NCBI GenBank assembly: GCA_965197645.1
Contig: OZ240219.1
Coordinates: forward strand, 1,984,001 to 2,048,000
From: Dehalococcoidia bacterium
GTDB taxonomy: Bacteria > Chloroflexota > Dehalococcoidia > Plut-88900
DNA length: 64,000 nucleotides
Direction of reading: 5' to 3'
Under the pieces are notes generated by a model that saw only the letters and a list, made by a program, of their open reading frames with translations, had not been told where the DNA came from and did not search any database. Shown piece after piece: positions 31,649 to 59,695 of the stretch. Every line of letters starts with the position of its first letter. Within the stretch, counting starts at the first letter, position 1. A program made the translations under genes and the position numbers.

Positions 31649-31718
31649 CTGTTCTCTCCAATTGCCCGGTCTGGTTGCCGGAGATCCCGCTTACCTCAGT
31701 GATTCTTCTTACGCACTG

Positions 31719-31848
31719 ACCCATGAAAACCCTAGTGCCTCTTCAACGCTTTGGTAAGTGCCTAATCACACTCTTGAGACGGCAAAAGTGTTAGCTCTGA
31801 GAGAGAGCGTTTCTGCGACGTTTCGCTCTTGCCGGCATAAACGAAAGT
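31719..31848 (-). promoter_or_regulatory. Conserved promoter module, copy 1
   Basis: -35 TTACCA (31757-31752), 17-bp spacer, -10 TAGGGT (31734-31729); homologous to three other copies. Confidence 0.7.
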
Positions 31849-31959
31849 CAGGCACGCGCCACCGGAACGTATCCGGTCCGGGGGAGGCCGCTGGTCTCGG
31901 CCATCCTCATATGCGGGCTTTTCTTTTTGCCAGTAGGACCGAGCGATTGACTTCCCGGT

Positions 31960-34900
31960 CTATCCGCCCGGCCCGGAGACGGTCAGCTCCAGCCGAGTGG
32001 AGAGCATCCTCTCGTCCGCGGTGCAGATGGCCCCGTCGGCGTCGCAGTCCGTGGTTGCCGGGAGTTCGATGGTCACGTCGGCGGCCGAGTCGGGCGTCAC
32101 GGTGATGGTCCACCCGATGTTGCTTCCCTGGGTCAGTCGCTTGGCTTTGTTCACCGTGCCACCCGTGACGCTGAATGCGTGGTCTCGCAGCGTCACGTAG
32201 CTGATGCCGAACCCCTCGCTGAAGCGCAGCTCGAAGGTGAAGGCGGTCTGGCCGTCGTGGATGTTTGGTACGTTGCTGAAGCTGGCGGTAAGCGGCGTGG
32301 GCTTCGCCGTCACCGCCTTCGTCGCCGCGCTGGTCAGAGATTCTGCATTGCCAGCGTCGTCGGTGAAAGTCACCCGCACCCTGATGGTCTGCCACTGCTC
32401 GCTGGAGGTGAGGGTGTAGGTGGAACCGGTGGCCCCGCCGACGTCCGAGCCTCCGGCAATCCACTGGTAGCCGTAGGAAACGTCGTCCAGGCCGTCCTGG
32501 TCGGCGATGCCCGACGTTGAGGTGGTGAGGGTCTCGCCCACCTGCAGCGTGCCACCGATGGCCGGGGCGCCCGTGGCCGGGCTATTGCCTTCCGGCACCG
32601 CTTCCACCTGGTCCGTCGCCGCGCTGGTCAGGGATTCCCTGTTACCGGAATCGTCGGTGAAAGTCACCTGAACCTGGATGGGTTGCCCCTGCTCGCTGGA
32701 CGTGAGCTCGTAACTGGAGCCGGTGGCCCCGTCGATGTCCGACCCGTCGGCGACCCACTGGTAGCCGTAGGAAACGTTCGACAGCCCGTCCTGGTCTGCG
32801 ATGCCCGACGTTGACGCCGTCAGGGTCTGTCCCACCTGCGGCATTCCGGTGATGGTGGGAGTTCCCGTGGCATCACGGTTGGGTGCCGCCGCCACCTCTT
32901 CGGTCGCATCGCTGCCCAGCGATTCGATGTTGTTCCGGTCGTCGGCGAATCTCACCCTTACCGTTACGGTCTTTCCCTGCTCGCTGGCGGTGAGGGTGTA
33001 GGTGGAGCGGTTGGCCCCGATTATGGTCAGGCCCCCGGCCCTCCACTGGTAGAAGAAGGTGGCGTTGGTTATCCCGTCGAGGTCGGAGATGTTCGAGGTG
33101 TCCGCCGTTAGCGTCTGGCCCACGCGGGCCGTACCGTCGATGGTGGGCTTGCCAGTGGCTTGACGGTTGGGCGCCGCAATCACCGCGCCCGTCGCATCGC
33201 TGGTCAGGGACTCCTGGTTGTCAGCATCGTCGGTGAATGTCACCCGTACCTTGATGGTCTTGCCAACATCATCATCCGTCACCGTGTAGGCCGAGTCCGT
33301 TGCATCCTCTATCTCCGTGTCGGATACCCCGTCGTTCCGGACCCACTGGTAGCTGTAGGAAACATCGTCCAGCCCGTCCTCGTCGGTGATGCCGTTGGTG
33401 AGGGCCGTCAGCGTCTCTCCCACCTGGGCCGTCCCGCCGATGGTGGGCTGGCCCGTGGCCGGGGTGTTCTCGGCTGGCTCAGTCACTCTGACGGCGACCT
33501 CTTTCCCCTCCGGTAAGTTTAGTCCCGGGTCGTTCCACTGGAACTGGATGATGGAGATAGAGTCCCCCTCCAGGGTCGATGCGTCGGTAGAGGCGAATTC
33601 GTCCGTCCCAACCACCAGGACAAAGTCGGCAGTCAGTTTTGGCATCACCGAGAGAATCAGCTTGCCGTTCAGAACCCCCAGGGCCCTGACGGTGTAGCTG
33701 GCGTCGTCCGACGTGATGGTGTCGGGCGAGAGAGCACCCAAAGTGTTGGTTTCCGGCGAAGACAGGAATGTCGTATAGCCGGCAAAATTCTCTCCGATCT
33801 CCACCGTCAAGGTCGCCGCCCATATCGGTTCTTCCTGTGGTATTCCAGAGGCTTCGGCCGAGGTGGGAACGCCAAACACCCAAGGTCGGGCCTGTTTGAT
33901 GGATAGGACGTCGTCGCTGGTGATCTTGAACTCGATCTCCATTGCGAAGGGTTCGTCGGGTCCGGGGTTGTACAGACCCTCGAAATGGTCATGGATATCT
34001 TGGAGATGCCGGCGCAACTGGCCAATTTGAGCATCGCTCATGAGGAGTTGTCCTTTTGGCGCCTGGTTGGAGGTCACCAGGGTGGTGTATGAACCGGACA
34101 GGTCCAGCAGGATCTCCTCGGGCACCGAGTGTGCGTCGGGATTGGTGACCAGGTCCTCGCCGAGTTGCGTGTTGACGTAGTAGCTCCCCTTTGTTCCGTA
34201 GATAGGGTCGAAGCTGACGGCCACGCCGTTGGCCAGCTCGTCCGAGTAGTTGGGATGGACCAGCACCCCCATCGCCGTCGCCAGGTGGTCGATGCGGTGG
34301 AACTCGCGTTCAGTGAAGGCCCGGAAGTTCCACAGGCTGGCCCACACCCCTTTGATGGACTTGTCGATGCCGTCCTCGTCCGTCTCCTCGGGGTCCTGGG
34401 TCTTGGAGTCGTACAGCCCAGCGCCGCTGAAGCCCGGCAGGTCTTCGTTGTTTGTGCTGGACCGGTAGCGCAGGGATTGCCCTTCGGGGTAGCTGGCGTG
34501 CATCTCCTCCAGTGCGTCGATGATCCAGTCGGGCGTCTCCCCATTCTTGATCTTCTTGCGCAGTTTCTTGAGTTCTTTCTCCTGGATGTCATAGCCCGAC
34601 TGGAAGTCCGGGTCTTCCAGCATCTCCTCTACCTCGTCATAGAACCCGTTGTGCTTCATGAACCCGTCGTAGAAGTAGAAGGGCACCGCAAACCCGTCGG
34701 GGACGGTTCCGTCGGGAAAACCCAGGGTCCGCAGCACGGCCACGTTGGCCGCCTTGACGCCGAACGCATTCCAGTCGTCGAAGCCGATGTCGTCCAGGTC
34801 GGTGATCTGGGTGACCGTGAGGTCCCGTTCCGGCGTCTGGGTTCCGTGAGGGCGCGAAGCGGCGAAATAGGCCTCGACTTCGGCGGGAGTGGCGGCGCGG

Positions 34901-37900
34901 ATGGAATAGCCGTCCGCCGTGACGCTGTAGTGGACGTATCTGCCGATGAGATCATCGATGTCGCCGTCGTCTAGGGCGTCGCGAATGAAGGCGTTGGGGA
35001 CACCGTCCTGGACGGCCCGCAGGTTGACGTGGGAGAGCGGTGTCTGGGGTACGGTGGTGATGAGACCAGCGACCCGGGCAAGCTCGTTGGGGATAGTCTC
35101 GTAGATCACCACGTCGCGCGGGTCGGGGCGTTCCTCCAGCGACATGAGCCTGAGGAAACCGTACCCTTCCCCAAGGTTGAGGGGGAGGAATGGAACATCT
35201 GGCAGGATGTCCTCTCTCAACACCACATTGATCCGGGAATCGTCGTAGAGGGCCCGTTCTTTGTGATAGAGCGGCAGGGCTCTCCTCGGCATCGGGTAGT
35301 AGGCAAGGTTGTCATCAAGCAGCGGCATGCTGGCAGCAAGCGCCTCATACGAACGGGCCACATCGCCGAAGGGGTATTCATCCATGGGCTGGAACTGGTA
35401 GCGGTAGACGCCAAGGGAACCATCGGGAGCAATCACATTGGGGTGGTATATGATCTCGCCGCCCATGTACCCCTGTCCCCAGAGGGGGTCCTCCCAGAGA
35501 CCGATTGCATCCCCGAAATCGGGATGTATTCGGTGGGTCTCGGTGTTTATGAAATAGATGCCCATGTTGTCGGCAGACGAGCCGATAATGTAGAACTTGA
35601 CAAACTCCAGGTCCTGGAGATGGCGGTGATAGGGAACGTCTCTGCCCTTGTAGGAAAGCGCCTCAAATGCCTCACGGTCTGGAATGGCCACCGCGCCATC
35701 TCGAAAAGGGACCGCCCTAGCGGGGTTCAGCGGGTTCATCCCCACCGGGTCCCCCAATTCGGTGATGTCGTCGATGCAGTCGTTGTCGATGTCGCCAGGG
35801 TCGGCGATGAGGAACTTTTCAACCCGGTAATGCTCCTTGGGGAGCGGGTACAGCTGCTCGGTCAACGTTGTTGTGCCGTCTTCGCCCAGGGTCACCGAGA
35901 CCGAGAACTCTCGTTCGGAGTCCAGGTCGGGCCGCACGTAGAGCACGAAGTACTCCTCGGTGGTGGACTCGATGATAGCGGGAACGGCTTGTACCTCTAC
36001 CGCCGTTGCCGCCGGGGCCTGATCGCCGACAGTACACGCCACGACTGATACCTTGACCGTCCTCTGACTGGTAAGCGCCTCCAGGCTGCCTCCATCGTCA
36101 TAGAACGACACCCGCACGCTAATGGTCTTGCCAAGGTCAGCCATAGCCAGGGTGTAAGTCGAAGCCGTCGCCCCTTCGATGTCGGAAAAACTGCTCTCGT
36201 GGTGGCTGCGGACCCACTGGAAACTGAACGCGTCATCGTCGAGCCCGTCGGGGTCGTCGATCCCGGACACGACCGCCGTCAGCGATTCGCCGACTTCGAC
36301 GGTGCCGCTGATGACGGGCGCTCCTGTCGCGGCACGGTTGGCGCTCACCCTGAGAATCCTGTCGACACCGGGTTTGTTGGAGGTGGCGATGTACAGAGCC
36401 CCGTCGGGGCCGAGAACCGGGGTCCGCAGCCGGCCCTGGCTGCCGTCGAGCTCCGGAACGACGATCTGACTTACGAAATCGCCCTGTTCGGTGAACTCGA
36501 AGACCCGGAGCGACTTCGTCTTGAGGGTGGCCACCGCGAGTCGCCCTTCCCACTCCCCCCATTGGAGGCCGTCCAGGAAGACGGCCCCGCTGGTTGCCAG
36601 AGTGGGGAATCCCGAGGACCATCTGGCCTGGCGGGCAGATGGGAACTTCGCCAGGTCGGTCATGGGGACGCCGGCCTCGTCGGAATAGTCGTAGAAGGCC
36701 AATGTGCCGTCGTCCGGGATCGGGTCCCAGCCGTAGTTGCCCCCCGGCGCCAGCAGATTGATCTCGTCGTCGTGTTTCGGGCCGTGCTCCACCAGCCACA
36801 TCTGGTCCGTGCCCGGGCGCAGCGCCAGGCCCTGGGGGTTGCGGAATCCGTAGGAGTACACCGGCGAGGAGGCGCCGAACGGATTGCCCGGCGCCCCGGC
36901 GCCCGTCCGCGGGTCGACGCGCAGGACCTTGCCGCCCAGGGACGTCAGGTCCTGCGCGCCCGTTACCACCCGCCCGTCGCCGGTCACGATCCAGAGATAT
37001 CCCTCCGGGCCGAACACCAGCCGGCCTCCCGAGTGCCAAGGGCCCGGACCGATCGGTATGCCCTCCACCAGGGGATCGACGACGCGTGTGGCTTCGTCGT
37101 AGTTCGCGTCGATCGTCCAGGCGATCACCTGCATCTCGCGTCCGGTGTGTCCCTGGAGCGTGTAGAACCGCCGGTTGGTCGTAAAGTCCGGGTCCACGGC
37201 CAGCGCCTGCAGACCGGCGAACCCGTCGACGAGCAGGTCTCCGAGGTCCGCGTCGACCTGCTTGACGGTGCCGTCGGTCAGCCTCGCGTTCAGCACGCCG
37301 GCGCGCTGGGTGAACAACATCGTCCCGTCTGGGGTGAAATCGATGCCCCAGGGGTGGGACAGGCCCCTAACGATTACCGTCACCGTCAGTTCCGGACCCG
37401 GTTCGCGGGCGCCCACGACGGCGGTCGAAACAGCCTGAGCGGACTTGCCGGGGCCGTGCCCGTCGGTGTACGACGCCTCGGCCCTGAGCAGCATCTCTTC
37501 GTCTTCTTCGGTTGGAACGTAGCTGTCTCCTTCGCCGTAGGCCTCGACGCCGGTCCAGGTGGTTCCGTCAGGAGACCTGGCCCAGCTCCACGAAACCGCC
37601 CCGAGGGACGCCGCGGGACCCGAGCCGCCGCCTTCGAGGCCGTCGGGATCGGTCAGCGTGGCGCTGACCACCGTCCCGACCCTGGGTCTCGCCGGAAAGA
37701 GCGAAACGGTTCCGGGCCGGTCCTCCGCCTTGAACGCCTCGACCGCCGCTGTGGCCTCGCTGGTCAGCGTTTCATAGTTGCCGCGGTCGTCGACGAACGC
37801 CACCCGCACCTTGACCCGCTTGCCCAGATCCTCGGCGACGAGCGTGTAGGTGGGCGAGCCGCTCCCGATGTTCGTCTCGGTCGCGCCGTCGATCCGCAAC

Positions 37901-40900
37901 CACTGGTACGAGTAGGTCGCGCCTGTCAGCCCGTCGTCGTCCGACACGTCGGAGACCGCCGCGGCGAGCGGCCGCCCCACCCGCGCCGTGCCCGTGACCG
38001 TCGCCTCGCCGGCGGCCGGGTTGTTGATGAAGGAGCCGCGCACCTCGATCTTGTAGGAAAACGCGTCGGAGGCCCATCCCTGGTCGGCGGCCTGAGAAGA
38101 ATATGTCACGCTTCCGTCCGCGATGGACCACCCCTCCGCGGCTCCTGTGTCTTCGGAGCCGCTCGCCGTTCCACTGACGGCGATGGCGCCGGAACCCGTG
38201 GCGCGGATCCTTTCGACTACCACGAAATAGGTCGTCTCTTTCTCGAGAACCGGGCAGGTCGTCCCCGAGGCTGGAGCGGCAAAGGTGTTCACGCTCCGCT
38301 CCGACAGGCTCGCCGGGGCGATCAGCGTGCAGAGAGCGTCGCCCGGGACGCCGCCGTCGTCCGCGTTGAGCGTCACCTCGAGGTCGGACGGCGCGGACGA
38401 CGTGTCCGAAACTTCGCCGAACCCGATCCCGACGGACGCCAGCGCGTAGCCGGCTCTGCTGGTCCCGGTGGTGAACGCCTGGGCCCTCTTCGCGCCGGCC
38501 GAGCCCAGGTCGTGGCCGGCGCCGCCGGACTGCCCCGTGTTGCCGACCAGCACGGCCGCGGTCTCCGCGTCTTCGACGGAGGGCCGAACGACTCCGCTGA
38601 CGCCATGATAGGTGTAGATCATGTTGTCGTCGGCGTCGACAACGTAGAAGGTCTCCCCGTTCGACCAGATGCCGTAGGCGTGGTCGTTGTCCTCGTGGAG
38701 CGTAAAGTCGAAACCGGCTTCGGTTCCGTCGGACAGTTTCACGCTCGGCACCGAGGCGTCGTTCGAGGCGAACCTGACGCCCCACATCGTCCGCCCGTCG
38801 GTGAAGAGGCCCCTCAGCTGGCCTCTGCCGGGGATCGTCAGCTTCCGGGAGGTGTCCGGCCTCCCGTATTCGTCCTCCGGCGTCTCCGGGTCGTCGAACA
38901 GACGGAAGGCGTGCGCGTGCGACGTGGTGTTTGTGATCCACATGTGACGGCCGTCCGTCGCCATGCCGCGCACGATGAACACTCCCCCGGCGACGTTCAA
39001 ACCCCCGTAGACAAAGTCCCGATCTTCCGCCCGCGTGAAACTCGTCAGATCGTAGCCGAAGACATCTCGGCTGGCGCCGTCAAGGGACTCTTCGGCGACG
39101 TACAGGCGGGGGCCGTGACCGGTGACGTAATGGTCTTCCTGGCCGAGGCTCGGAACGTCCCAGCCGGGGTCCCGGGTCCCGTACTCGTTGACCGCGGTGG
39201 CGGGGTTGTCCCACAGCTTGTAGGCAAAGACCTTCCGGGCGCTGCTGTCGCCGACCCACAGCGTTTCGCCGTCGGACCAGATGCTCTTCGGGTCCGCGTT
39301 CTCCGGATGCAACGCAAAGGGTCCATCCTGGATCCATTCCCTCTGAACTAATGGTCTGCCGATCCACATAAGCATGGCGCTGCCGCGGCCGGCGCGGATG
39401 CCCGACGCTGAACCCCCGGAAGGCAACAGAAAAGCAGCGGAGTCGATCTCCACCGTGACGGGATGAGACCCGTGCGCACCAACCTCGATAACGTCCGAAT
39501 ATGAACCGCCAGCGGCGATGGTGACTGTCTTGGTGGACAGATCTCCGTTACGGGCCGACAGTTCGATCTGAAGATCGAACGGCGTCGCGCCTTCGGCCAA
39601 TCGGACCATGACCGTGTCGTCTCCCCGACGCTCCAGCTCCGCGGTGAACTTGAAAGGCGAGCCCGGATTGTCGCCCGCGTCAAGAGCCGTCAGCCCCGAC
39701 AGACCTTCGAAGACGCCGACAGGCAGGTCCTTGAGCTCGTTTCCCGAAAGGTCCAGCTCAGTAAGACTCCCGAGGTCGGCGAACACGTCCTCCGGCAGGC
39801 TCTTCAGGTCGTTCCCCGCGAGGGAGAGACTCTGCAGGTCGCCGAGACCGCCGAAGACCCCTTCCGACAGTTCGGGGATCTCGTTGATCGACAGGTCCAG
39901 GCCGCGCAACTCAAGATTGCGGTCGAACACCCCGTCAGGCAGTTCGTCAATGAAGTTGCCCGACAGATAGAGCTCCTCCACCGCCCGGAGGTCTTGGAAG
40001 AGTCCGTCCGGGACCGTCCCGAGGAAGTTTCTGTTCAGGTCCAGGGCGCGCAGCGCGTTCAGGTCCCGGAAATCACCGGCCTGCAGGGCCGACAGTCCTC
40101 TCCCCTGAAGGTACAGCCCGGGCGTGACGTCGGGGCCGAAGTGCTGGGAGCCGGTCCAAGTCCTGAGCCTCGTCTCGGACACCTCCGAGCAGTCGCCGAC
40201 GCCGGTCATCCCGGCGACGATGGCCGCCATCACCGAAGGCGTCCGGTCGCAGATGCCGGGGGCGCCGACCCGACCCGTCGGCTCGCTGGTAAGCGACTCT
40301 TGGTTGCCGGCGCCGTCGGTGAAGGACACCCTGACCTTGACGGTCCTGTCCCGGTCACCGGAGACGATGGTGTAGGTCGAATCGGTAGCGCCCGCGATGT
40401 CAGTGTCGGCGTTCCCGTCGTTCGAAATCCATTGATATTCGAAGCTGGCGGCGTCCAGCCCGTCCGCGTCGACGATGGAGCGGGTGCCCGCCGCCAGCGT
40501 CTCGTCCACTCGGACCGCGCCGGTTATCGTCGGCGCTCCCGTCGCAGGATTGTTCCAGTCGTATGCGTAGAGCTTAGCGTCGTCGCGGGACGCGACCCAC
40601 ATCGTGGACCCGGCCGACCAGATGTCCTCGTAAGATTCATCGTCGGCGTCCAACGCGAAGTCCTTGCTGCCGTCCCAGCTCCGGTCCGACATCCGGTAGG
40701 CGTACAGCTTGGCGTCCCGCCAGTCCGAAACCCACATCGTGGATCCGTTCGACCAGACGCCCATAGGAGAGTCGTGGCCGGGGGCCAGCGTGATGTCCTT
40801 CTCGAAGTCCCAGGCCCTGGTCGACAGGTCGTAGGCGAACACCGTGTCGTTGCCGGTGTCCGCCACCCACATGGTGATCCCGTCCGACCAGATGCCCTCG

Positions 40901-41322
40901 GGAAATTTGTTGCCGGCTGCAGAAAGCGTGTTGAAGTCCTTGCCCGAGTCCCGGCTCCGGTCGGACATCCGGTAGGCGTACAGCTTGGCGTCGGTGAAGT
41001 CCGACGCCCACATGGTTGTCCCGTCCGACCAGATGCCCACCGGAGAGCCGTTGGCGGCGTCCAGAGTGAAATCCTTGCCCGAATCCCGGCTCCGGTCCGA
41101 CATACGGTAGGCGTACAGCTTGTGATCCTCGAAGTCCGCGACCCACATGGTGGTCCCGTCCGACCAGATGCCGGTCGGATAGCCGTTGGCGGCGCCCAGA
41201 GTGAAATCGCTGCCGGAGTCCCGGCTCTGGGCCTGGACCTCAGGAGTGAGAAGCAGGGCGCCGAAGACCGCGAGTGCGATGAGCAGCAGCGGGAGCGGCG
41301 CCAGACGCCGGAATGAGATCAT
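31960..41322 (-). CDS. Giant secreted multidomain protein: beta-propeller repeats, LRRs, Ig-like repeats, PQQ-dependent sugar dehydrogenase domain and dikinase-like (His + PPDK_N ATP-grasp) module
   Basis: Signal peptide; GIWSDGTTMWV repeats; LxxLxLxxN repeats; GLSHPWG, HSGGRL, GFRNPQG, GGNYGW (GSDH); PLSHVNLR, GVKAAN, RSSTNNEDLPGFSGAGLYDS, VWASLWN. Confidence 0.88.
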   Translation of the reverse strand: MISFRRLAPLPLLLIALAVFGALLLTPEVQAQSRDSGSDFTLGAANGYPTGIWSDGTTMWVADFEDHKLYAYRMSDRSRDSGKDFTLDAANGSPVGIWSDGTTMWASDFTDAKLYAYRMSDRSRDSGKDFNTLSAAGNKFPEGIWSDGITMWVADTGNDTVFAYDLSTRAWDFEKDITLAPGHDSPMGVWSNGSTMWVSDWRDAKLYAYRMSDRSWDGSKDFALDADDESYEDIWSAGSTMWVASRDDAKLYAYDWNNPATGAPTITGAVRVDETLAAGTRSIVDADGLDAASFEYQWISNDGNADTDIAGATDSTYTIVSGDRDRTVKVRVSFTDGAGNQESLTSEPTGRVGAPGICDRTPSVMAAIVAGMTGVGDCSEVSETRLRTWTGSQHFGPDVTPGLYLQGRGLSALQAGDFRDLNALRALDLNRNFLGTVPDGLFQDLRAVEELYLSGNFIDELPDGVFDRNLELRGLDLSINEIPELSEGVFGGLGDLQSLSLAGNDLKSLPEDVFADLGSLTELDLSGNELKDLPVGVFEGLSGLTALDAGDNPGSPFKFTAELERRGDDTVMVRLAEGATPFDLQIELSARNGDLSTKTVTIAAGGSYSDVIEVGAHGSHPVTVEIDSAAFLLPSGGSASGIRAGRGSAMLMWIGRPLVQREWIQDGPFALHPENADPKSIWSDGETLWVGDSSARKVFAYKLWDNPATAVNEYGTRDPGWDVPSLGQEDHYVTGHGPRLYVAEESLDGASRDVFGYDLTSFTRAEDRDFVYGGLNVAGGVFIVRGMATDGRHMWITNTTSHAHAFRLFDDPETPEDEYGRPDTSRKLTIPGRGQLRGLFTDGRTMWGVRFASNDASVPSVKLSDGTEAGFDFTLHEDNDHAYGIWSNGETFYVVDADDNMIYTYHGVSGVVRPSVEDAETAAVLVGNTGQSGGAGHDLGSAGAKRAQAFTTGTSRAGYALASVGIGFGEVSDTSSAPSDLEVTLNADDGGVPGDALCTLIAPASLSERSVNTFAAPASGTTCPVLEKETTYFVVVERIRATGSGAIAVSGTASGSEDTGAAEGWSIADGSVTYSSQAADQGWASDAFSYKIEVRGSFINNPAAGEATVTGTARVGRPLAAAVSDVSDDDGLTGATYSYQWLRIDGATETNIGSGSPTYTLVAEDLGKRVKVRVAFVDDRGNYETLTSEATAAVEAFKAEDRPGTVSLFPARPRVGTVVSATLTDPDGLEGGGSGPAASLGAVSWSWARSPDGTTWTGVEAYGEGDSYVPTEEDEEMLLRAEASYTDGHGPGKSAQAVSTAVVGAREPGPELTVTVIVRGLSHPWGIDFTPDGTMLFTQRAGVLNARLTDGTVKQVDADLGDLLVDGFAGLQALAVDPDFTTNRRFYTLQGHTGREMQVIAWTIDANYDEATRVVDPLVEGIPIGPGPWHSGGRLVFGPEGYLWIVTGDGRVVTGAQDLTSLGGKVLRVDPRTGAGAPGNPFGASSPVYSYGFRNPQGLALRPGTDQMWLVEHGPKHDDEINLLAPGGNYGWDPIPDDGTLAFYDYSDEAGVPMTDLAKFPSARQARWSSGFPTLATSGAVFLDGLQWGEWEGRLAVATLKTKSLRVFEFTEQGDFVSQIVVPELDGSQGRLRTPVLGPDGALYIATSNKPGVDRILRVSANRAATGAPVISGTVEVGESLTAVVSGIDDPDGLDDDAFSFQWVRSHHESSFSDIEGATASTYTLAMADLGKTISVRVSFYDDGGSLEALTSQRTVKVSVVACTVGDQAPAATAVEVQAVPAIIESTTEEYFVLYVRPDLDSEREFSVSVTLGEDGTTTLTEQLYPLPKEHYRVEKFLIADPGDIDNDCIDDITELGDPVGMNPLNPARAVPFRDGAVAIPDREAFEALSYKGRDVPYHRHLQDLEFVKFYIIGSSADNMGIYFINTETHRIHPDFGDAIGLWEDPLWGQGYMGGEIIYHPNVIAPDGSLGVYRYQFQPMDEYPFGDVARSYEALAASMPLLDDNLAYYPMPRRALPLYHKERALYDDSRINVVLREDILPDVPFLPLNLGEGYGFLRLMSLEERPDPRDVVIYETIPNELARVAGLITTVPQTPLSHVNLRAVQDGVPNAFIRDALDDGDIDDLIGRYVHYSVTADGYSIRAATPAEVEAYFAASRPHGTQTPERDLTVTQITDLDDIGFDDWNAFGVKAANVAVLRTLGFPDGTVPDGFAVPFYFYDGFMKHNGFYDEVEEMLEDPDFQSGYDIQEKELKKLRKKIKNGETPDWIIDALEEMHASYPEGQSLRYRSSTNNEDLPGFSGAGLYDSKTQDPEETDEDGIDKSIKGVWASLWNFRAFTEREFHRIDHLATAMGVLVHPNYSDELANGVAVSFDPIYGTKGSYYVNTQLGEDLVTNPDAHSVPEEILLDLSGSYTTLVTSNQAPKGQLLMSDAQIGQLRRHLQDIHDHFEGLYNPGPDEPFAMEIEFKITSDDVLSIKQARPWVFGVPTSAEASGIPQEEPIWAATLTVEIGENFAGYTTFLSSPETNTLGALSPDTITSDDASYTVRALGVLNGKLILSVMPKLTADFVLVVGTDEFASTDASTLEGDSISIIQFQWNDPGLNLPEGKEVAVRVTEPAENTPATGQPTIGGTAQVGETLTALTNGITDEDGLDDVSYSYQWVRNDGVSDTEIEDATDSAYTVTDDDVGKTIKVRVTFTDDADNQESLTSDATGAVIAAPNRQATGKPTIDGTARVGQTLTADTSNISDLDGITNATFFYQWRAGGLTIIGANRSTYTLTASEQGKTVTVRVRFADDRNNIESLGSDATEEVAAAPNRDATGTPTITGMPQVGQTLTASTSGIADQDGLSNVSYGYQWVADGSDIDGATGSSYELTSSEQGQPIQVQVTFTDDSGNRESLTSAATDQVEAVPEGNSPATGAPAIGGTLQVGETLTTSTSGIADQDGLDDVSYGYQWIAGGSDVGGATGSTYTLTSSEQWQTIRVRVTFTDDAGNAESLTSAATKAVTAKPTPLTASFSNVPNIHDGQTAFTFELRFSEGFGISYVTLRDHAFSVTGGTVNKAKRLTQGSNIGWTITVTPDSAADVTIELPATTDCDADGAICTADERMLSTRLELTVSGPGG

Positions 41323-41325
41323 GAC

Positions 41326-41472
41326 TCACCCCCTGCTAGCCAAGTGAAAGAAGCCGGGAGGGTGAACCTCTGTGCTAGCCCATCGTTGGCGGAAGTCCCC
41401 GGCGCGACCGGTGCAGCGACGGCTCGTGCCGTCCGCCGTCTCAGGTGCATGAACCGATCTGTAGAGCGTCAT
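41326..41472 (-). other. Candidate 48-aa upstream ORF in a conserved 5' leader
   Basis: MTLYRSVHAPET...RRCTGR...VHPPGFF; RBS-like AGAGGA; homolog at 47131-47286. Confidence 0.3.
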
Positions 41473-41586
41473 GTCAATGCTTCCTCTGAACGAGCGGGAT
41501 GAGCGGAGCCTACGGCCCCCCATGCTGTCCCCACGTAGAGTGGCAGCCTGTGATTCCGCCCATCCTGTGAGCCTTCTGGCACGTTT

Positions 41587-41719
41587 ACCCATGAAAACCC
41601 TAGTGCCTCTTCAAGGCTTTGGTAAGTGTCTAATCACACTCTCGGGACGGCAAAAGTGTTAGCTCTGAGAGAGAGAGTGTTTCTGCGACTTTTTCACTCT
41701 TGCCGGCATAAACGAAAGT
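41587..41719 (-). promoter_or_regulatory. Conserved promoter module, copy 2
   Basis: TTACCA (41625-41620), N17, TAGGGT (41602-41597). Confidence 0.7.
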
Positions 41720-41789
41720 CAGGCACACGCTACCGGAACGTATCCGGACCGGGAGAGGCCGCTGCTCTCTCCCCCGGCCACCCGCATAC

Positions 41790-41932
41790 GAGCGTGTCTC
41801 AAAAGTACGGATGTCTTGGTCCCAACCGCCCGCCCTCGGAAGGTTTTGTAGCTGGGGGAACATCCCCCAGGCCCCCTGCCAGAGGGAAGGTTCCCTCTGG
41901 ACTCTCTCAAAGCAGGGTTCTGAGACAGGCTC
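41790..41932. mobile_element. 143-bp MITE, copy A
   Basis: 15-bp TIRs GAGCGTGTCTCAAAA / TTCTGAGACAGGCTC; flanking ATAC duplication; the homologous site near 31909 is empty. Confidence 0.85.
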
Positions 41933-41982
41933 ATACGCGGGCTTTTCTGTTGCCAGAAAGATCTTGCGACTGACTTCCCTCT

Positions 41983-44900
41983 CTATCCGCTCGAACCACT
42001 GACGGTGAACACCAGATTATTGGACAGCTTTCTGCCGTCCTCCGTGCAGATGGCTTCCTGAGCCTCGCAGTCCGTCGTGGCGGGCAGAACGATGGTCACA
42101 TCCTCGCTGGAGTCTGGCCTCACCATTATTCGCCACTTGATGTTGCTTGGCTTGTCCATGCGTTGAGCCTTTAATATGGACCCGCCGGTTACACTAAAGG
42201 CATGGAACTTTAGGGTCTTGTAGCTGAGGGGAATATCCTCGCTGAATCGGATGTCGAATGTGAAGACATTCGAGGCGCCGTGGTGGCTGGCCACGGGGAA
42301 CACCAGGCGGACGGTCAGCGGCGTGGGCTTCGCCGCCACCACCGCCGCCGTCGCCTCGCTGGTCAGGGTCTCGGCGTTGTCGGCATCGTCGCGGAAGGAG
42401 ACCCGGACTTGGATTGTCTGCCCTTTCTGCATGTCCTTGAGGGTGTAGCTGGAGCCGGTGGCCCCCGAGATGTCCGACCCTCCGGCGGTCCACTGGTAGC
42501 TGTACGACACGTTGGTCAACCCGTCTGCGTCCTCAACACCGATGGTGTCCGCCGTCAGCGTCCCATCCACTTGGACCGTGCCGCTGATGGTCGGCGCGCC
42601 CAGGGCCGGGGTATTCTGATCGGACTGCACGAGGTTCACCGACACCTCGTTCTCATCCGACCAGCCCAATCCCGGGTCATGCCACCGGAATCTGTAGGAC
42701 GCACCACCATGATCCACCATGGCGTCCGCCGAGCCGAACTCCTCGTCCCCCACCGACAGCACGAAGCCTGTGGAGAACATCTCTTCGTTCAGGCCGAGCC
42801 GGAGCTCGCCGTCCTTGAGAAAAAGGAACCTGACATAGTGGGTCTTGCCGTCCCATTCGACCTCGGTGGCCGACAGGGACCCCAGGTGGGGATTGCCCCA
42901 GTACGAATACCCGGTGAACCCATCCCTTGTCCCCACGGTCATCGTGGCGGACCAGGCGTTGCTAGCCTGCTGCACCACCTCCGTTGCCGCGCTGGTCAGC
43001 GTCTCCTCGTGGTCAGCGTCGTCGGTGAAGGAGACTCTGACCTTGATGGACTTACCTGCGTCAGCGGCCACCAGGGTGTAGGTGGAGTCCGTCTGCCCCG
43101 CTATGTCGGTGTCGGTGGTCCCGTCGTTGGAAACCCACTGGTAGCTGTAGGAGACGCTGGTCAGCCCGTCGGCGTCGTGGACGCCGGAAACGTCCGCTGT
43201 CAGCGTCTCGCCCGCCTGGGCCGTGCCAATGATGGTCGGCAACCCGGTGGCCGGGCTGTTGAGGGCGACGACCGCACTCGTCCAATCACGTACGATGCGC
43301 GCCGTAAGGGTCTGACCGTCCTCCCAATCGGCGTCGACGTCTTCCCAGCTAAAGGTGGCATCCCCTCCCTGTAATGCCAGCGCGACATCGCCAACTAGCA
43401 GTGTCAGGTCGCTGATGCTGGGAACGTTATCCGTAAAAGCCAAGCGAAGCTTCCGTTCCGGAGAGTAGTACCACAGCCACTTTGCCTGAAGGCCGGCGTT
43501 GCCCCCGGAGTTCGAAAAGAGATCGGCGCTGGCGGCGCCGATGGCGCCGGTGCCGTAATCCACCACCAACATATCCGCCCGCCACTCGTCCGCCGTCGGC
43601 ACCGTCGCCGTCGCATCGCTGGTCAGGGTCTCGCTGTTGTTGGCGTCGTCGGTGAAGCTCACCCGCAGCTTGATGGTCTTGCCCACATCGTCGTCGGACA
43701 GTGTGTAGGTGGAGTTGGTCGCTCCCCGTATGTCCGTGTCGGTGGTCCCATCGTTGGCACTCCACTGATAGGTGTACGAAACGTTGGTCAGCCCGTCGGC
43801 GTCGGTGATGCCGGAAACGTCCGCCGTGAGGGTCTCGCCCACCTGAGCCGTCCCACTGATGGTCGGCGCTCCCGTGGCCGGGGTGTTGGGACGAGGCTGC
43901 ACAGCGGTCGTCGCCGCGCTGACCAAGTTCTCTTCATGCCCCAGGTCGTCGGTGAAGCCCACCCGCACCTTGATGGTCTTGCCCACGTCGGCGGAGACCA
44001 GGGTGTAGGTCGAGCCTGTCTGACCGCTTATGTCCGTGTCGGTGCTCGCGTCGTTTGCAATCCACTGGTAGCTGTAAGAAACGCTGGTCAGCCCGTCGGC
44101 GTCGGTGATGCCGGAAACGTCCGCCGTGAGGGTCTCGCCCACCTGGGCTGTCACACTGATGGTCGGCGCTCCCGTGGCCGGGGTGTTAGGCGGGGTGACG
44201 GGAGGGGTTGCTGCGCTGGTCAGGGTCTGGCTGTTGGTGGCGTCGTCGGTGAAGGATACCTTGACCTTGATGGTCTTGCCCTCGTCGGCGGTCACGAGGG
44301 TGTAGGTCGCGGCCGTTGCGTTCTCAATGTCCGTGTCGGTGGTCCCGTCGTTGGCAATCCACTGATAGGTGTACGAAACGTTGGTCAGCCCGTCGGCGTC
44401 GGTGATGCCCGAGGTATCCGCCGTCAGCGTCTCGCCCGTCTCGGCCTTGCCGATGATGGTCGGCAACCCGGTCTCCGGGCTGTTGGGACGAGGCTGCACA
44501 GCGGTCGTCGGCACGCTGGTCAGCGCCTCCTCGTAGCCCCGGTCGTCGGCAAAGCTCACCCGCACCCTGATGGTCTTTCCCACGTCGGCGTCCGACAGGG
44601 TATAGGTCGAGCTTGCGGCGTTCTCGATGTCCGTCTCCGTCGTTCCATCGTTCCGAATCCATTGGTAGCTGTAGGGGGAGCCGTAGAGCAAGCTGATCAG
44701 CCCGTCGGCGTCGGCGATGCCCGACGGGTCCGCCGTCAGCGTCTCGCCCACCTGAGCCGTCCCACTGATGGTGGGCGCTCCGGTGGCCGGGCGGTTTTCC
44801 GATGGCGCGTCGCCGCCGAAGACCCAGGGGCGGGCCTGTTTGATCGACAGAATATCGTCGCTGGTGATCTTGAACTCGATCTCCATGGCGAACGGCTCAT

Positions 44901-47115
44901 CGCCCTCGATGCCGTACAGCTCGGCGAACTCGTCATGGATCAGTTCGAGATGACGGCGCAACTGGTCCATTTGGGCGTCGCTCATAAAGAGTTGCCCCTG
45001 CTGCACCTGGTTGGAGGTCGCGAGGACGGTATATTCACCGCCCTGGTGCAACAGGATTTCCTCCGGCGCCGAGTGCGCGTCGGGATTGGTGACCAGGTCC
45101 TCCCCGAGCTGCGAGTTGACGTAGTAATTCCCGTATCTCATTCGGATAGGATCGAAGCTGACGGCGACGCCGTTGGCCAGTTCGTCCGAGTAATTGGGAT
45201 GCACCAGCACCCCCATCGCCGCCGCCAGGTGATCGACGCGATAGAATTCGCGTTCGGTGAAGGCCCGGAAGTTCCACAGGCTCGCGTACACCTGCTTGAG
45301 CGATTTGGCAATCCCGTCTTCTTCGGTCTCATCGGGATGCTGGGTCTTGGAGTCGTACAGCCCCGCGCCGCTGAAACCGGGCAAGTCTTCGTTGTTGGTG
45401 CTGGACCGGTAGCGCAGGGATGTGCCTGCGGGGAACCCAGCGTGCATCTCCTCCAGCGCCGCGATAATCCACTCGGGCGTCTCGCCCTTCTTGATCTTCT
45501 TGCGCAGCTTCTTGAGCTCTTTCTCCTGGGTGTCATAGTCCGACTGGAACTCCGGGTCGGCCAGCAATTCCTCAACGTCGTCATAGAACCCATTGTGCTT
45601 CATGAATTCGTCGTAGAAGTAGAACGGCACCGCGTACCCGTCGGGGACGGTGTTCTCGGGAAAGTCCAGGGTTCCCAGAACGGCCACGTTCGCCGCCTTG
45701 ACGCCGAACGCGTTCCAGTCGTCGAATTCAATGTCGCTCAGGGCCGTGATTTCCGTGACCGCAAGGTCCCGTTCCGGCGTCTGGGGCTCGGAAGGGCGGG
45801 AGTCGGCGTAGTGGGCATCGACTTCCGAGGGCGAGGCCGCGAAGACATAGTACGTGGTCGATCCTACAAGGTACTGGACATAGCTGCCGATGAGACCTTC
45901 AATGTCGGGGGCCTCCAGAGCGTCACGGACAAAGGCGTTGGGGACGCCGTCTTGCACGGCGCGCAGGTTGACATGCGAAAGCGGCGTTTGCGGCACGGTC
46001 GTCATGATGCCGGCAACGCGGGGGAGCTCGTTGGGCAGGGTGTCATAGATCACGATGTCGCGAGGGTTGGGCCTTTCCCCCAGCGACATGGCCCGCAGGA
46101 AACCGAACCCCCTGCCCCGGTTGAGGGAGATGAAATCCAGATCGAAAGCGATGTCTTCTGCGAGCAGCACGTCGACCCGGGAATCATCATAGAGAGACTT
46201 ATCCTTGTGGTAGCGAGGCACCGCCTTCGACCACATCGGATAATAGGCGAGGTTATCTTCCAGCAGCGGCATGCTGGCTGCCAGAACGGTGAACGCATAG
46301 GAAATCTCTTTGAAAGAGTAGACATCGCTGGCCCCGAACTGGAAACGATAGACACCCAGAGACCCGTCGGGAGCAACCGCTTTCGGGTGGTATACCATCT
46401 CTCCGACCATCGTCTCATGTCCGTGGAGTGGGTCGACCTCGAGACCAACGTCCGCCTGGAAGTCGTCGTGTCGTTGGTACGTCTTGGTGTTCATGAAATA
46501 GACGGATGGGCGGTCGGTGTTCATGTCGACCATATGGAACTTGACGGCCTCCCAGCCGGCCAGATGTCTGTCGATAGCTCCAATCTCACCCTTGTAGGCA
46601 AGCGACACATACGTCTCGCGGTTAGGAATGGCCGCCGCGCCATCGTCAAACCTCATGGCTGGGACAGGGTTCACCGGGTTCATGCCCACCGGATCCGCCA
46701 GCTCTGCAATGTCATCAGTGCAATCGCCATCGACATCGGCGGGGTCGCTGACGAGGTATTTCTCCACCCGGTAGCGCTCTTTGGGCAGCGCCTCCAGGCT
46801 CTCGGTCAGCGTCGTGGCGCCGTCCTGGCCCAGGGTCACTCTGACCGGTACTTCAAACGTGGTGTCCGCGTCCAGACCGTGCCGCACATAGAGCACGAAG
46901 TACTCGTCGGTAGTGGACTCGACCACGATAGGAACGGCCCCAACCTCTACCGCCGTCGGCGTCGGGGCTGAGTCGGCTCCGGGACACGTATCCTCCTGTG
47001 AGGCTTGCTGCGCGGAGGCTGTGGACCAGGGTATGAGCAAGTACAGGGCGAACAGGGCTAGTAGCCCGGGAAGGATGAGGAGGGTCAGAGGAGCACGGCG
47101 GCTGGGTAGAGTCAT
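41983..47115 (-). CDS. Large secreted protein with a dikinase-like (His + PPDK_N ATP-grasp) module and Ig-like repeats
   Basis: Signal peptide ...STASA; PLSHVNLR, GVKAAN, RSSTNNEDLPGFSGAGLYDS, IKQARP; repeated PATGAPTISGTAQVGETLTAD; paralog of the C-terminal half of 31960-41322. Confidence 0.88.
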   Translation of the reverse strand: MTLPSRRAPLTLLILPGLLALFALYLLIPWSTASAQQASQEDTCPGADSAPTPTAVEVGAVPIVVESTTDEYFVLYVRHGLDADTTFEVPVRVTLGQDGATTLTESLEALPKERYRVEKYLVSDPADVDGDCTDDIAELADPVGMNPVNPVPAMRFDDGAAAIPNRETYVSLAYKGEIGAIDRHLAGWEAVKFHMVDMNTDRPSVYFMNTKTYQRHDDFQADVGLEVDPLHGHETMVGEMVYHPKAVAPDGSLGVYRFQFGASDVYSFKEISYAFTVLAASMPLLEDNLAYYPMWSKAVPRYHKDKSLYDDSRVDVLLAEDIAFDLDFISLNRGRGFGFLRAMSLGERPNPRDIVIYDTLPNELPRVAGIMTTVPQTPLSHVNLRAVQDGVPNAFVRDALEAPDIEGLIGSYVQYLVGSTTYYVFAASPSEVDAHYADSRPSEPQTPERDLAVTEITALSDIEFDDWNAFGVKAANVAVLGTLDFPENTVPDGYAVPFYFYDEFMKHNGFYDDVEELLADPEFQSDYDTQEKELKKLRKKIKKGETPEWIIAALEEMHAGFPAGTSLRYRSSTNNEDLPGFSGAGLYDSKTQHPDETEEDGIAKSLKQVYASLWNFRAFTEREFYRVDHLAAAMGVLVHPNYSDELANGVAVSFDPIRMRYGNYYVNSQLGEDLVTNPDAHSAPEEILLHQGGEYTVLATSNQVQQGQLFMSDAQMDQLRRHLELIHDEFAELYGIEGDEPFAMEIEFKITSDDILSIKQARPWVFGGDAPSENRPATGAPTISGTAQVGETLTADPSGIADADGLISLLYGSPYSYQWIRNDGTTETDIENAASSTYTLSDADVGKTIRVRVSFADDRGYEEALTSVPTTAVQPRPNSPETGLPTIIGKAETGETLTADTSGITDADGLTNVSYTYQWIANDGTTDTDIENATAATYTLVTADEGKTIKVKVSFTDDATNSQTLTSAATPPVTPPNTPATGAPTISVTAQVGETLTADVSGITDADGLTSVSYSYQWIANDASTDTDISGQTGSTYTLVSADVGKTIKVRVGFTDDLGHEENLVSAATTAVQPRPNTPATGAPTISGTAQVGETLTADVSGITDADGLTNVSYTYQWSANDGTTDTDIRGATNSTYTLSDDDVGKTIKLRVSFTDDANNSETLTSDATATVPTADEWRADMLVVDYGTGAIGAASADLFSNSGGNAGLQAKWLWYYSPERKLRLAFTDNVPSISDLTLLVGDVALALQGGDATFSWEDVDADWEDGQTLTARIVRDWTSAVVALNSPATGLPTIIGTAQAGETLTADVSGVHDADGLTSVSYSYQWVSNDGTTDTDIAGQTDSTYTLVAADAGKSIKVRVSFTDDADHEETLTSAATEVVQQASNAWSATMTVGTRDGFTGYSYWGNPHLGSLSATEVEWDGKTHYVRFLFLKDGELRLGLNEEMFSTGFVLSVGDEEFGSADAMVDHGGASYRFRWHDPGLGWSDENEVSVNLVQSDQNTPALGAPTISGTVQVDGTLTADTIGVEDADGLTNVSYSYQWTAGGSDISGATGSSYTLKDMQKGQTIQVRVSFRDDADNAETLTSEATAAVVAAKPTPLTVRLVFPVASHHGASNVFTFDIRFSEDIPLSYKTLKFHAFSVTGGSILKAQRMDKPSNIKWRIMVRPDSSEDVTIVLPATTDCEAQEAICTEDGRKLSNNLVFTVSGSSG

Positions 47116-47130
47116 GGCGCCACCCTTTTT

Positions 47131-47286
47131 CTACCCCAGCACGAAGAATCGATAAATCGGGGGGGGGTGAACGTCTGTACTAAGTCGCCGCGCGCGACAG
47201 ACGCCGGTGCGACCGGTGCAGCGACGGCAGGGCCCGTCGCTCCGTACGCCTGTCTCAGGTGCATGGACCGGTCTGTCGAGCGTCAT
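47131..47286 (-). other. Candidate 51-aa upstream ORF containing a G9/C9 tract
   Basis: MTLDRPVHAPET...RRCTGR...VHPPPIYRFFVLG*; homologous to 41326-41472. Confidence 0.3.
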
Positions 47287-47401
47287 GTGAACGCCTCGCT
47301 CTGCACTGGCGGGATGAGCGGAGCCTACGACCTCCTCCGCTGTCCGCAGGTAGAGTTGCAGCCTGTGATTCCGCTTACTTGGTGGTTCCTATTTCGCATT
47401 T

Positions 47402-47543
47402 ACCCATGAGAACGGTAGCGGCTCTCCAAGGCTTTGGTAAGTGCCTAATCACACTTCTTGGTGAGGTAATTTGGACAGCACTTTGTTAGCTTTTAGAGAG
47501 TGTGTTTCTGCAACTTTTCACTCTTGCCGGCACAAACAAAAGT
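47402..47543 (-). promoter_or_regulatory. Conserved promoter module, copy 3
   Basis: TTACCA (47440-47435), N17, TACCGT (47417-47412). Confidence 0.7.
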
Positions 47544-47666
47544 GGCGCCAATACTTCTCACGGACGACCGCAATCCCCTCAGCAACGGGATGTCCAAGCG
47601 TCAGCCGGGAGGGCCTAAGCAAGCCCGTTCTCCCGCCGCCTTCGAAGCTCGGACGTATCCATGTAT

Positions 47667-47809
47667 GAGCTTGTCTCAAAAGTACGGACGCCTTAGTCCC
47701 AACCGCCCGCCCTCGGAAGGTTTTGTAGCTGGGGGAACATCCCCCAGGCCCCCTGCCAGAGGGAAGTTTCCCTCTGGACTCTCCCAAAGCAGGGTTCTGA
47801 GACAGGCTC
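47667..47809. mobile_element. 143-bp MITE, copy B
   Basis: Near-identical to copy A; TIRs GAGCTTGTCTCAAAA / TTCTGAGACAGGCTC; flanking GTAT duplication. Confidence 0.85.
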
Positions 47810-47861
47810 GTATGCGGCCCTTTTTTGTTGCCCGGAAACCGAGCGACAGGTCCCCCTCCGC

Positions 47862-50402: not shown

Positions 50403-50461
50403 TTTGCTCCTCGATGCTCCTACATTTCAGGCCGATGCAAGTGGCGGTTCCCTACAGCCCT

Positions 50462-51403: not shown

Positions 51404-51464
51404 CTTGTTCCTCTCTCCGTGGACTTGGGAGCTTTCCCTTGGGTCCGCTCAGGGGGTTGAATCG

Positions 51465-59474: not shown

Positions 59475-59695
59475 TGTGTCTGAGATCCACAGGCGAGACA
59501 GCATCACGATTTGTAGTCGTCAAGTAAGTGCCCCTCATACCTGCGTCTAAGCTTGAGGATCGCAGCATTCAAACCGACAGGATAGATGGTCAAAGGCGGC
59601 AACGAGTCGATGCTGCCAGAGAGCGCCAAGCTCGGTGACGGGACCGAGTAGTTTCGAAAGGCCCTCGCTGGCGGGTAGGGTTGAGAAACACCGTG

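Follow-up and report, generated by a model that had tools for sequence, protein, structure and literature searches.

A widespread, apparently exported protein module resembling histidine-swivel dikinases in two giant proteins of a Dehalococcoidia bacterium

Introduction

Can an enzyme of the dikinase type work at a bacterial surface, away from the compartments in which ATP is plentiful? To our knowledge, all characterised His-swivel dikinases (phosphoenolpyruvate (PEP) synthase (PEPS), pyruvate phosphate dikinase (PPDK), rifampin phosphotransferase (RPH), the glucan water dikinases GWD/PWD and phenol kinases) work in ATP-rich cytoplasm or, for GWD/PWD, in the plastid. The question is raised by two neighbouring giant genes, P0001 and P0002, in a 64,000-nucleotide stretch (hereafter, the window) of the genome of a Dehalococcoidia bacterium (Chloroflexota; assembly GCA_965197645.1, contig OZ240219.1, positions 1,984,001 to 2,048,000), which an initial annotation had described as secreted giant adhesins carrying a glucan-water-dikinase-like enzyme. 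We consider it probable, though by no means certain, that each displays on an Ig-like stalk an exported, self-contained His-swivel dikinase module of ~720 amino acids (aa), which would pass phosphate via His338 to an acceptor bound by a domain that we call N2.

Results

The module shared by the two proteins spans 33874-36036 in P0001 (721 aa, P0005) and 44818-46986 in P0002 (723 aa, P0004), and the two copies are 68.9% identical. Residue numbers throughout (His338 and so on) follow P0004. The genes and the parts of their modules, in window coordinates, are as follows.

31960-41322, minus strand: P0001 gene (3120 aa); putative signal peptide, 45-aa repeats, leucine-rich repeats (LRRs), choice-of-anchor R domain, glucose/sorbosone dehydrogenase (GSDH) domain, dikinase-type module, Ig-like repeats
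33874-36036, minus strand: P0001 module; N1 ~35722-36036, N2 35194-35721, His domain 34843-35193, ATP-grasp 33874-34818 (limits inferred by transfer from the P0004 model with a 2-residue shift)
41983-47115, minus strand: P0002 gene (1710 aa); putative signal peptide, dikinase-type module, then Ig-like (IG_AIR9/SCAB-Ig/ZirU-type) repeats
46666-46986, minus strand: P0002 N1, residues 1-107; predicted beta-sandwich, acidic D-x-D-x-D-x-x-x-D-x-x-E loop and Cys1/Cys89 pair
46138-46665, minus strand: P0002 N2, residues 108-283; predicted alpha/beta, with K149-F150, Y163-F164-x-N166, H173 and S269-R270
45787-46137, minus strand: P0002 predicted swivel phosphohistidine domain, residues 284-400; His338 codon at 45973-45975
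44818-45762, minus strand: P0002 PPDK_N ATP-grasp, residues 409-723; K430, R527, S546, E702, E704, Q717 and R719

Much of what the initial annotation read from the letters is borne out: both minus-strand open reading frames (ORFs) exist, the His codons lie exactly at 35029-35031 and 45973-45975, and PLSHVNLRA, GVKAAN, RSSTNNED, GAGLYDS, ASLWN and QARP occur in both proteins (the longer WASLWN is confined to P0001, P0002 having YASLWN, and the upstream VKFY and VKFH belong to P0001 and P0002, respectively). The conserved module that it proposed is also real, but its limits were drawn too narrowly, as the conserved block extends ~107 aa (N1) further upstream; the proposed starts (~35720 and ~46640) mark instead a minimal N2-His-ATP-grasp unit, which stands alone in Stieleria marina. 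An AlphaFold2 model of the module (mean pLDDT 87.1, pTM 0.67, from a 40-member alignment) and a second model of residues 108-412 (pLDDT 90.5, 54 sequences) were used for the structural comparisons below.

The C-terminal part of the module is a PPDK_N-type ATP-grasp nucleotide domain. Pfam family PF01326 (PPDK_N) matched the whole proteins (E 6.4e-27 and 4.4e-25) and the modules alone (E 2.5e-25 for P0002 and 6.6e-28 for P0001), above its 27-bit cut-off, and over residues 409 to 723 the model superposed on RPH (5hv1_A; VIA Z 31.1, root mean square deviation (rmsd) 2.3, 290 residues aligned), PEP synthase (2ols, Z 29.8), the HpeI phenol kinase subunit (9goj, Z 23.4) and PPDK (1dik, Z 23.0), with Foldseek likewise returning 5hv1 (4e-16) and 2ols (2e-15). 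In HMMER alignments K430 (GVK against GGK), R527 (RYRSS) and S546 (GAGLYDS, the equivalent of the 'FAGQ' stretch of PEPS/PPDK) fall on RPH K22, R117 and T136, which hold the ATP phosphates (PMC4844700). By motif, E702, E704, Q717 and R719 can be assigned as the acidic/Gln-Arg motif of the C-terminal end, so that the residues expected for ATP phosphates and Mg appear to be present. Separately, in three Dehalococcoidia genomes (G456, G470 and G493) the module match splits at residues ~465/470 with ~30 extra residues between, which looks like an insertion early in the ATP-grasp.

The region ahead of the ATP-grasp carries the conserved histidine. In the model, His338 starts a short helix (338-346) within a small beta-rich domain (284-400). 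When the N2+His model was compared with 48,161 representative chains (VIA), the eight best rows were all swivel domains (next row, Z 6.4), seven of them phosphohistidine or PEP-utiliser-type domains: RPH 767-867 (Z 10.9, rmsd 2.3, 94 aligned; a region that holds the catalytic His825 of RPH), the PEP-utiliser-like C-terminal domain of Bacillus pyruvate kinase (Z 10.4), three Enzyme I rows (Z 9.9, 9.6 and 8.7), maize PPDK 398-518 (1vbg, Z 8.6), the PPDK phosphoryl-carrier domain (2fm4, Z 8.4) and aconitase X (Z 8.4). A separate VIA comparison matched the His domain to RPH 5fbu 753-867 (Z 10.4). On these models, residues 284-400 adopt a predicted swivel phosphohistidine fold around the SHV motif, ahead of the PPDK_N ATP-grasp, as the initial annotation had anticipated.

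Co-folding the His domain (284-400) with the ATP-grasp (409-723), ATP and Mg gave a median score of 0.84 over three runs, a mark reached by 116 of 157 solved complexes and by 2 of 215 mismatched pairs, with the best of three controls at 0.00. The runs had at least 69% of contacts in common and partner pLDDT values of at least 87, and the confident interface joined residues 334-336, His338 and 341-346 to residues 537-542 (the PGFSGAG loop) and E702. These predictions support docking of the His domain on the nucleotide site.

Conservation points in the same direction. In a residue census of 432 domain matches in 395 relatives, His338 was kept in 386/388 (and in 54/54 and 39/40 sequences of two further alignments), K430 in 395/396, R527 in 395/395, S546 in 394/395, E702 in 355/374 (19 more having Asp), E704 in 371/373, Q717 in 368/368 and R719 in 365/367, in agreement with the earlier claim that catalytic-type residues are present. 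The module is under purifying selection: in all seven ortholog pairs (orthologues from seven other Dehalococcoidia genomes), the ratio of nonsynonymous to synonymous substitution rates (dN/dS) was 0.21-0.28 for the module and 0.40-0.56 for the rest of the same proteins, a remainder that is repeat-rich and may be partly misaligned. These data bear on whether the module could be a catalytically silent pseudo-enzyme, reused as the binding head of an adhesin. The adhesin-like stalks and the scarcity of ATP outside cells would suit such a role; retention of all eight catalytic-type positions in 95-100% of relatives, a His missing in only 2 of 388 sequences and the low dN/dS argue against it, and we give it very little credence.

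Two further domains precede the His domain. N1 has strands at residues 11-78 (DSSP on the model) and an acidic loop of nearly invariant residues (D84 in 283/284 relatives, D86 in 284/284, D88 in 284/285, D92 in 285/285 and E95 in 282/282); Cys89 is kept in 230 of 285 relatives, and a Cys1/Cys89 pair is frequent. We infer that the loop may bind calcium and that the two cysteines may form a disulfide; calcium loops and disulfides are typical of extracellular proteins. N2, with 6-7 strands and 6-7 helices within ~175 aa in the predicted models, had no match in either module among Pfam (E<=10, at which hmmscan matched the modules to PPDK_N alone) or NCBIfam families. Foldseek searches with the N2+His model gave nothing at E<=0.001, and the sole N2 row in VIA, where N2 was searched only joined to the His domain, was 2okf_B (Z 5.5); an ESM Atlas search with residues 1-310 gave a best score of 0.84, to unnamed clusters, and is a lead only. 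Weak N2-sized Foldseek rows (gelsolin/cofilin, APOBEC3H and PPK1) were set aside at probabilities of 0.23 or below. The only PDB profile match of N2+His, potato multicystatin 4lzi (overall E 1.1e-5), was discounted because that figure is built from three ~9-bit matches to the repeated cystatin units, with individual E values of 8-12; the matching segment is the helix-plus-hairpin of N2 (P0004 residues ~161-221, window ~46324-46506).

All three of N2, the His domain and the ATP-grasp are present in 311 of 395 relatives; 62 of the 75 lacking N2 start at the first residue of the record, such that most relatives without N2 look like truncated records. Because N2 nearly always accompanies the other two domains, it is the natural candidate for acceptor binding. 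The initial annotation had suggested that this upstream region (VKF., YF.NT) could bind the substrate: it is indeed a conserved domain, and substrate binding is its candidate role.

Both proteins, and the family at large, look exported. Each has a single hydrophobic segment, N-terminal in both (P0001 residues 6-31, P0002 residues 8-32), with RR in front and VQA (P0001) or ASA (P0002) behind. The signal peptides were judged by eye and by a crude home-made rule, and their positions are as follows.

47011-47115, minus strand: P0002 signal-peptide-like N-terminus, residues 1-35; SRR, hydrophobic core, ASA before QQ, by eye
41230-41322, minus strand: P0001 signal-peptide-like N-terminus, residues 1-31; RR, hydrophobic core, VQA before QS, by eye

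The same rule was positive for 56 of 82 module ORFs, 74 of 211 flanking ORFs and none of 21 cytoplasmic PEPS/PPDK ORFs. Seven of seven stand-alone homologues of ~840 aa begin with signal peptides, and five of these end in a type IX secretion system (T9SS) tail (E<=0.01; three above the Pfam cut-off), one such T9SS-tailed cluster coming from Cryomorphaceae metagenome-assembled genomes (MAGs). Among the 40 aligned members, Por_Secre_tail was found in six, CW_binding_2 in three and SLH in two. The Ig-like repeats claimed for P0001 and P0002 were recovered as IG_AIR9 and SCAB-Ig (Pfam) and ZirU_fam (NCBIfam).

Export need not mean exposure to the outside, and the module might instead act where ATP is plentiful, in a diderm periplasm or, as an effector-like kinase, inside a host or target cell. 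In diderms (Planctomycetota, Acidobacteriota) a signal peptide alone shows periplasmic export only, and the neighbouring genes of the window include eukaryote-like ones (ankyrin, LRR, RCC1). T9SS tails, SLH and CW_binding_2 domains and cadherin/fn3 stalks nevertheless point to the cell surface, and the periplasm is itself without ATP; no translocation domain was seen in P0001 or P0002 (Pfam and NCBIfam scans), and in these giants the module is N-terminal or internal, away from the C-terminal place that is usual for polymorphic toxin domains. We regard such a location as quite improbable.

The family is large. When 1.84 billion cluster representatives were searched exhaustively, 4147 matched at E<=1e-3 and 1224 at E<=1e-30, a recurrence far beyond chance; the module mostly aligned as a single block (1-723), and its place varied within proteins that range from 700 to 3800 aa. 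Of 7999 candidates scored in a word-indexed search, 1875 matched, with fusions to cadherin, fn3, SLH, PKD and Ig-like domains. In two protein searches the best 120 rows were family members only; the sole informative database name for relatives was 'PEP/pyruvate-binding domain-containing protein', and PF25833, listed for relatives in precomputed columns, was without a match in a Pfam scan of three of them (P0020, P0022 and P0031). Our literature search, on limited terms, found no paper on an exported dikinase-module family. Among species-representative genomes, at least 598 of 603 candidate stretches encode a relative, and the best 80 loci fall in Dehalococcoidia, Acidimicrobiia (including Ca. 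Poriferisodalis and Ca. Poriferisocius), Acidobacteriota, Latescibacterota, Poribacteria, Thermodesulfobacteriota, Anaerolineae and Planctomycetota; Pirellulaceae MAGs also carry the family. The cultured Stieleria marina K23_9 has a 651-aa form that consists of a signal peptide and N2-His-ATP-grasp and nothing else.

Within this range, distribution is patchy: among the Dehalococcoidia sampled, the module occurs in 13 of 201 genomes (counting the one with the window), in 9 of 142 genera and, within the taxonomic family of the window genome, in 2 of 9 other genomes. In a FastTree phylogeny of 77 modules (module ORFs with a match span below 600 or above 820 aa were dropped), the phyla are intermixed (22 label changes, where 6 would be the minimum), and Chloroflexota monophyly was rejected (delta lnL 1212, approximately unbiased test p-AU 5.6e-7) in a 36-row subsample that left out the other 41 of 77. 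Paralogy can likewise split groups in such a tree; horizontal spread across phyla is likeliest, given the interleaving, the patchiness and the close pairs from different phyla that lie on megabase contigs (for example, L018 and L026). The two window copies fall in separate subclades, each with its own orthologues at 93-94% identity, so their duplication predates those species.

How does the module compare with known dikinases? RPH (RPH-Lm; 5hv1, 5fbs and 5fbu) is the best structural match for both catalytic domains and has the equivalents of the three phosphate-binding residues, but its order is ATP-grasp, rifampin (RIF)-binding domain and C-terminal swivel, where the module has N2, swivel and ATP-grasp; RPH is also cytoplasmic, and the module contains no relative of its RIF-binding domain. 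The NCBIfam RPH model (NF041857) scored 53-61 bits on the module, over its positions 3-235 only, against a cut-off of 999. PEPS and PPDK have the PPDK_N ATP-grasp and, in PPDK, a carrier domain that the module swivel resembles; they differ in that the module is without a PEP/pyruvate TIM barrel, has the reversed order and is not matched by PF00391 (PEP-utilizers), and the NCBIfam PEPS models match their first ~240 positions alone, far below cut-offs. The phenol kinase HpeHI (9goj), whose HpeI the module ATP-grasp resembles, shows that the swivel-plus-acceptor and ATP-grasp parts can be rearranged within the superfamily; unlike the module, it is cytoplasmic and split over two polypeptides, and its acceptor domain is RPH-like and serves phenols. 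HpeH alone can pass phosphate between donors and acceptors (PMC12167813), so ATP-independent exchange by the module is conceivable, although it would leave the conserved ATP-grasp unexplained. What the module would have in common with PEPS, PPDK, RPH and GWD is the two-site swivel mechanism.

The plant and algal GWD/PWD enzymes have the same linear order, that is, acceptor-side domain, His domain and C-terminal ATP-binding domain (PMC13553574). In both, the histidine opens a short helix (H992 in StGWD1; PMC13553574) with a conserved Leu at -2 (L990/H992 in StGWD1, L336/H338 in the module). Of the motif LSHVSVRA, which the initial annotation had given for plant enzymes, that report bears out V989, L990 and H992. 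The sequence-level comparison is faint. PF22973 (GWD1_pHisD), with a cut-off of 27 bits, stayed below it everywhere, at 11-18 bits on the module His segment; it matched that segment in three of nine genomes tested, always over profile positions 43/49 to 109/113. In the genome containing the window, its sole match at E<=10 was 34891-35100, across the P0001 His codon (11.3 bits); in Stieleria marina the best match (18.4 bits, E 0.008) was on that genome's module; and in genome G510 the only match (12.6 bits) was on the module His segment. Four further matches lay elsewhere in three other genomes, PF22973 was not among the 25 families listed (of 39) for 40 members by hmmscan, and a scan of 301 Acidobacteriota genomes (no match at E<=0.001) carries no weight, as its control matched nowhere either. 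As a match would hardly land by chance on a 200-nucleotide target within 2-8 Mb of genome, the match positions suggest distant kinship with a GWD-type, rather than a PEPS-type, His domain.

These likenesses could be read as marking a true bacterial GWD/PWD orthologue that phosphorylates extracellular alpha-glucans: the order agrees, and PF22973 lands below threshold on the module His segment in three of nine genomes whereas PF00391 matches none in five. The published StGWD1 central domain (PMC13553574) is all-helical, with 20 alpha-helices in 444 aa, in contrast to the ~175-aa alpha/beta N2. Further, Pfam scans up to E<=10 recovered neither CBM45 nor CBM20 from either protein or from the modules, and the module is without any carbohydrate-binding module (CBM); GWD is plastidial whereas the module proteins appear exported, and the N1 calcium-type loop domain occurs only in the latter. 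The GWD structure 9HA9 was also absent from our profile and fold search results. By Pfam profile and by published description, the module is not a GWD, with which it has the domain order and perhaps the type of His domain in common, and orthology is decidedly improbable. Of the earlier label 'glucan-water-dikinase-like', the domain order therefore stands and the remainder does not.

The mechanism that we favour would run as follows. After Sec export, the Ig-like repeat stalk would display one module copy per giant protein, N1 serving as an accessory extracellular part (beta-sandwich, calcium-type loop and disulfide pair). The C-terminal ATP-grasp would bind a nucleoside triphosphate; the swivel would dock on it, His338 taking the beta-phosphate with release of AMP and Pi; and the swivel would then swing to N2 and hand the phosphate to the acceptor bound there. 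The conjectural parts of this scheme are catalysis itself, the use of extracellular ATP as donor, the binding of the acceptor by N2 and the acceptor's identity, for which a glycan or other surface or matrix polymer is a guess on weak grounds.

Several observations weigh against this scheme, chief among them the supply of ATP: it is scarce outside cells, and no source is evident. All structures considered are predictions, and the co-fold result may reflect likeness to known enzymes, as the co-folded halves come from a single polypeptide and there are PPDK structures in which the His domain lies close to the nucleotide domain. The His segment fell below threshold in every sequence-level family test: PF00391 matched no module in five genomes at E<=10 (it does detect the cytoplasmic 762-aa enzyme of the same genome as the window), hhalign of the family His region against 29 PEP-utiliser domains placed His on His with a probability of 0.08 (E 0.65), and PF22973 behaved as described above. 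No fold or family could be assigned to N2 in the searches above, and the acceptor is thus a guess. The 6-kb flanks of 80 loci revealed no conserved partner (the largest flank cluster covered 15 loci, the next 4). Fusions to glycan enzymes are too few to indicate the acceptor: other fused catalytic domains are rare (besides the P0001 GSDH, one GSDH and two sulfatases in 19 long representatives, that is, 3/19), and the set is partly orthologous, the GSDH-fused representative (GSDH, LRR and module, like P0001) being taken for the P0001 ortholog.

The ATP problem also invites the opposite reading, in which consumption is itself the function: water would be the sole acceptor, ATP would go to AMP + 2 Pi, and the enzyme would quench purinergic signalling or scavenge phosphate, with N2 in a regulatory or positioning role. 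The habitat lends this some weight. Of the words sampled from the module, 30-38% are found in four 'sponge metagenome' metatranscriptomic runs of one study, and contigs from these runs at >=92% identity cover all 30 bins of 31800-47400, with pieces across both His codons (for example, 34634-35166 and 45899-46552). The sequence is present in sponge RNA libraries, a result that stops short of proof of transcription, since such libraries may carry DNA and contigs cannot rank expression; a promoter and terminator scan of 31500-48000 did no better than shuffles. Sponge-associated lineages account for many of the members, and the dikinase reaction yields AMP from ATP with no free ADP in between. Extracellular ATP and ADP elicit responses in sponges whereas AMP does not (PMC11883242), and RPH variants unable to phosphorylate rifampin still hydrolyse ATP (PMC4844700). 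If there were no acceptor, however, the retention of N2 in 311 of 395 relatives would be difficult to account for; simpler ecto-nucleotidases already do the job; and members also occur in Cryomorphaceae and Pirellulaceae MAGs and in Stieleria marina, the records of which name none as a sponge symbiont (sampling sites were unchecked). Pure ATP consumption is, on balance, unlikely, and transfer to an N2-bound acceptor is the reading that we retain. A search of the same genome for a TLC ATP/ADP translocase (PF03219) gave no match, its control likewise matching nowhere.

Accessory domains and genomic surroundings

Outside the module, P0001 carries a second putative catalytic domain ~110 aa upstream.

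36367-37362, minus strand: P0001 GSDH (PF07995), PQQ-type glucose/sorbosone dehydrogenase, residues 1321-1652; E 1.7e-66

TIGR03606 also matched this region (E 3.8e-30, below its cut-off). The choice-of-anchor R domain of P0001 came from NCBIfam and its LRRs from Pfam, and BLASTP of P0001 against P0002 aligned 683 of 1177 positions identically across the module plus repeats. P0001 residues 30-265 (window ~40530-41230) consist of five tandem ~45-aa repeats with the motif GIWSDGTTMWV...KLYAY, two further copies lying at residues ~681 and ~885; the repeats are without a match in both Pfam and NCBIfam and look like propeller blades. The last 125 aa of P0001 (31963-32337) and P0002 (41986-42360) form a common ~120-aa domain, 56.8% identical, with a conserved C-x5-6-C and no family match. 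A third paralog, P0382 (1841 aa; contig 1971636-1977161, minus strand, ~7 kb before the window start), combines Ig-like repeats and two fn3 domains with a module that shares 70% and 75% identity with the two copies in the window; it holds an internal copy of the ~120-aa domain (residues 270-389), which is therefore a repeatable domain rather than a C-terminal sorting signal.

The window also holds a dense cluster of eukaryote-like or surface proteins (7541-14405, 22676-31648 and 49077-53432), including CARDB, a 624-aa ankyrin protein, an 890-aa RCC1-repeat protein, two LRR proteins and two cadherin giants (953 and 2016 aa) on the same strand as P0001 and P0002; such clusters are typical of sponge-symbiont genomes. 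A Pycsar anti-phage system (19412-21033, plus strand) lies just upstream of the giant surface-protein gene array, its effector a cNMP-binding TIR protein (PycTIR, PADLOC E 5.6e-111; Pfam CAP12-PCTIR_TIR and cNMP_binding) whose gene is overlapped by that of the PycC cyclase (E 6e-99). A PIN_12 protein and an SMC/AAA ATPase matching PADLOC mad3 (MADS; E 2.7e-34), at 55909-57009 and 59681-61465 (plus strand), may be a second defence locus. At 14890-18407 (plus strand), a 618-aa fusion of a haem-oxygenase-like iron redox domain and the enolase-superfamily MR_MLE_C domain is followed by a GH3 protein of the bacterial acyl-acid amido synthetase family (E 4e-72), an odd pair with no PADLOC match.

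Discussion

Together, these analyses describe a familiar type of enzyme in a cellular setting where it was not expected: a large family with catalytic hallmarks under purifying selection, consistently exported as far as signal peptides and anchors indicate, mixed across at least seven phyla and with many sponge-associated members. A bolder form of the proposal, which we hold tentatively and think rather doubtful, is an ecto-dikinase that draws on the purinergic ATP pool of the sponge, converting ATP to AMP while skipping ADP and placing the beta-phosphate on an N2-bound matrix or surface polymer. ADP triggers contraction in the sponge Ephydatia (PMC11883242). If the bolder form is true, bacteria would have a route to silence a host danger or contraction signal and, by the same reaction, to modify the shared extracellular matrix, and free-living marine members would apply the same chemistry to polymers of particle or algal surfaces.

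With the 651-aa form of Stieleria marina K23_9, the question is within reach of bench experiments. If the module is active, it would bring ATP-dependent phosphorylation, with a phosphorylated extracellular product, to bacterial surfaces, and it may connect with the purinergic signalling of the host in the oldest symbiosis between animals and microbes.

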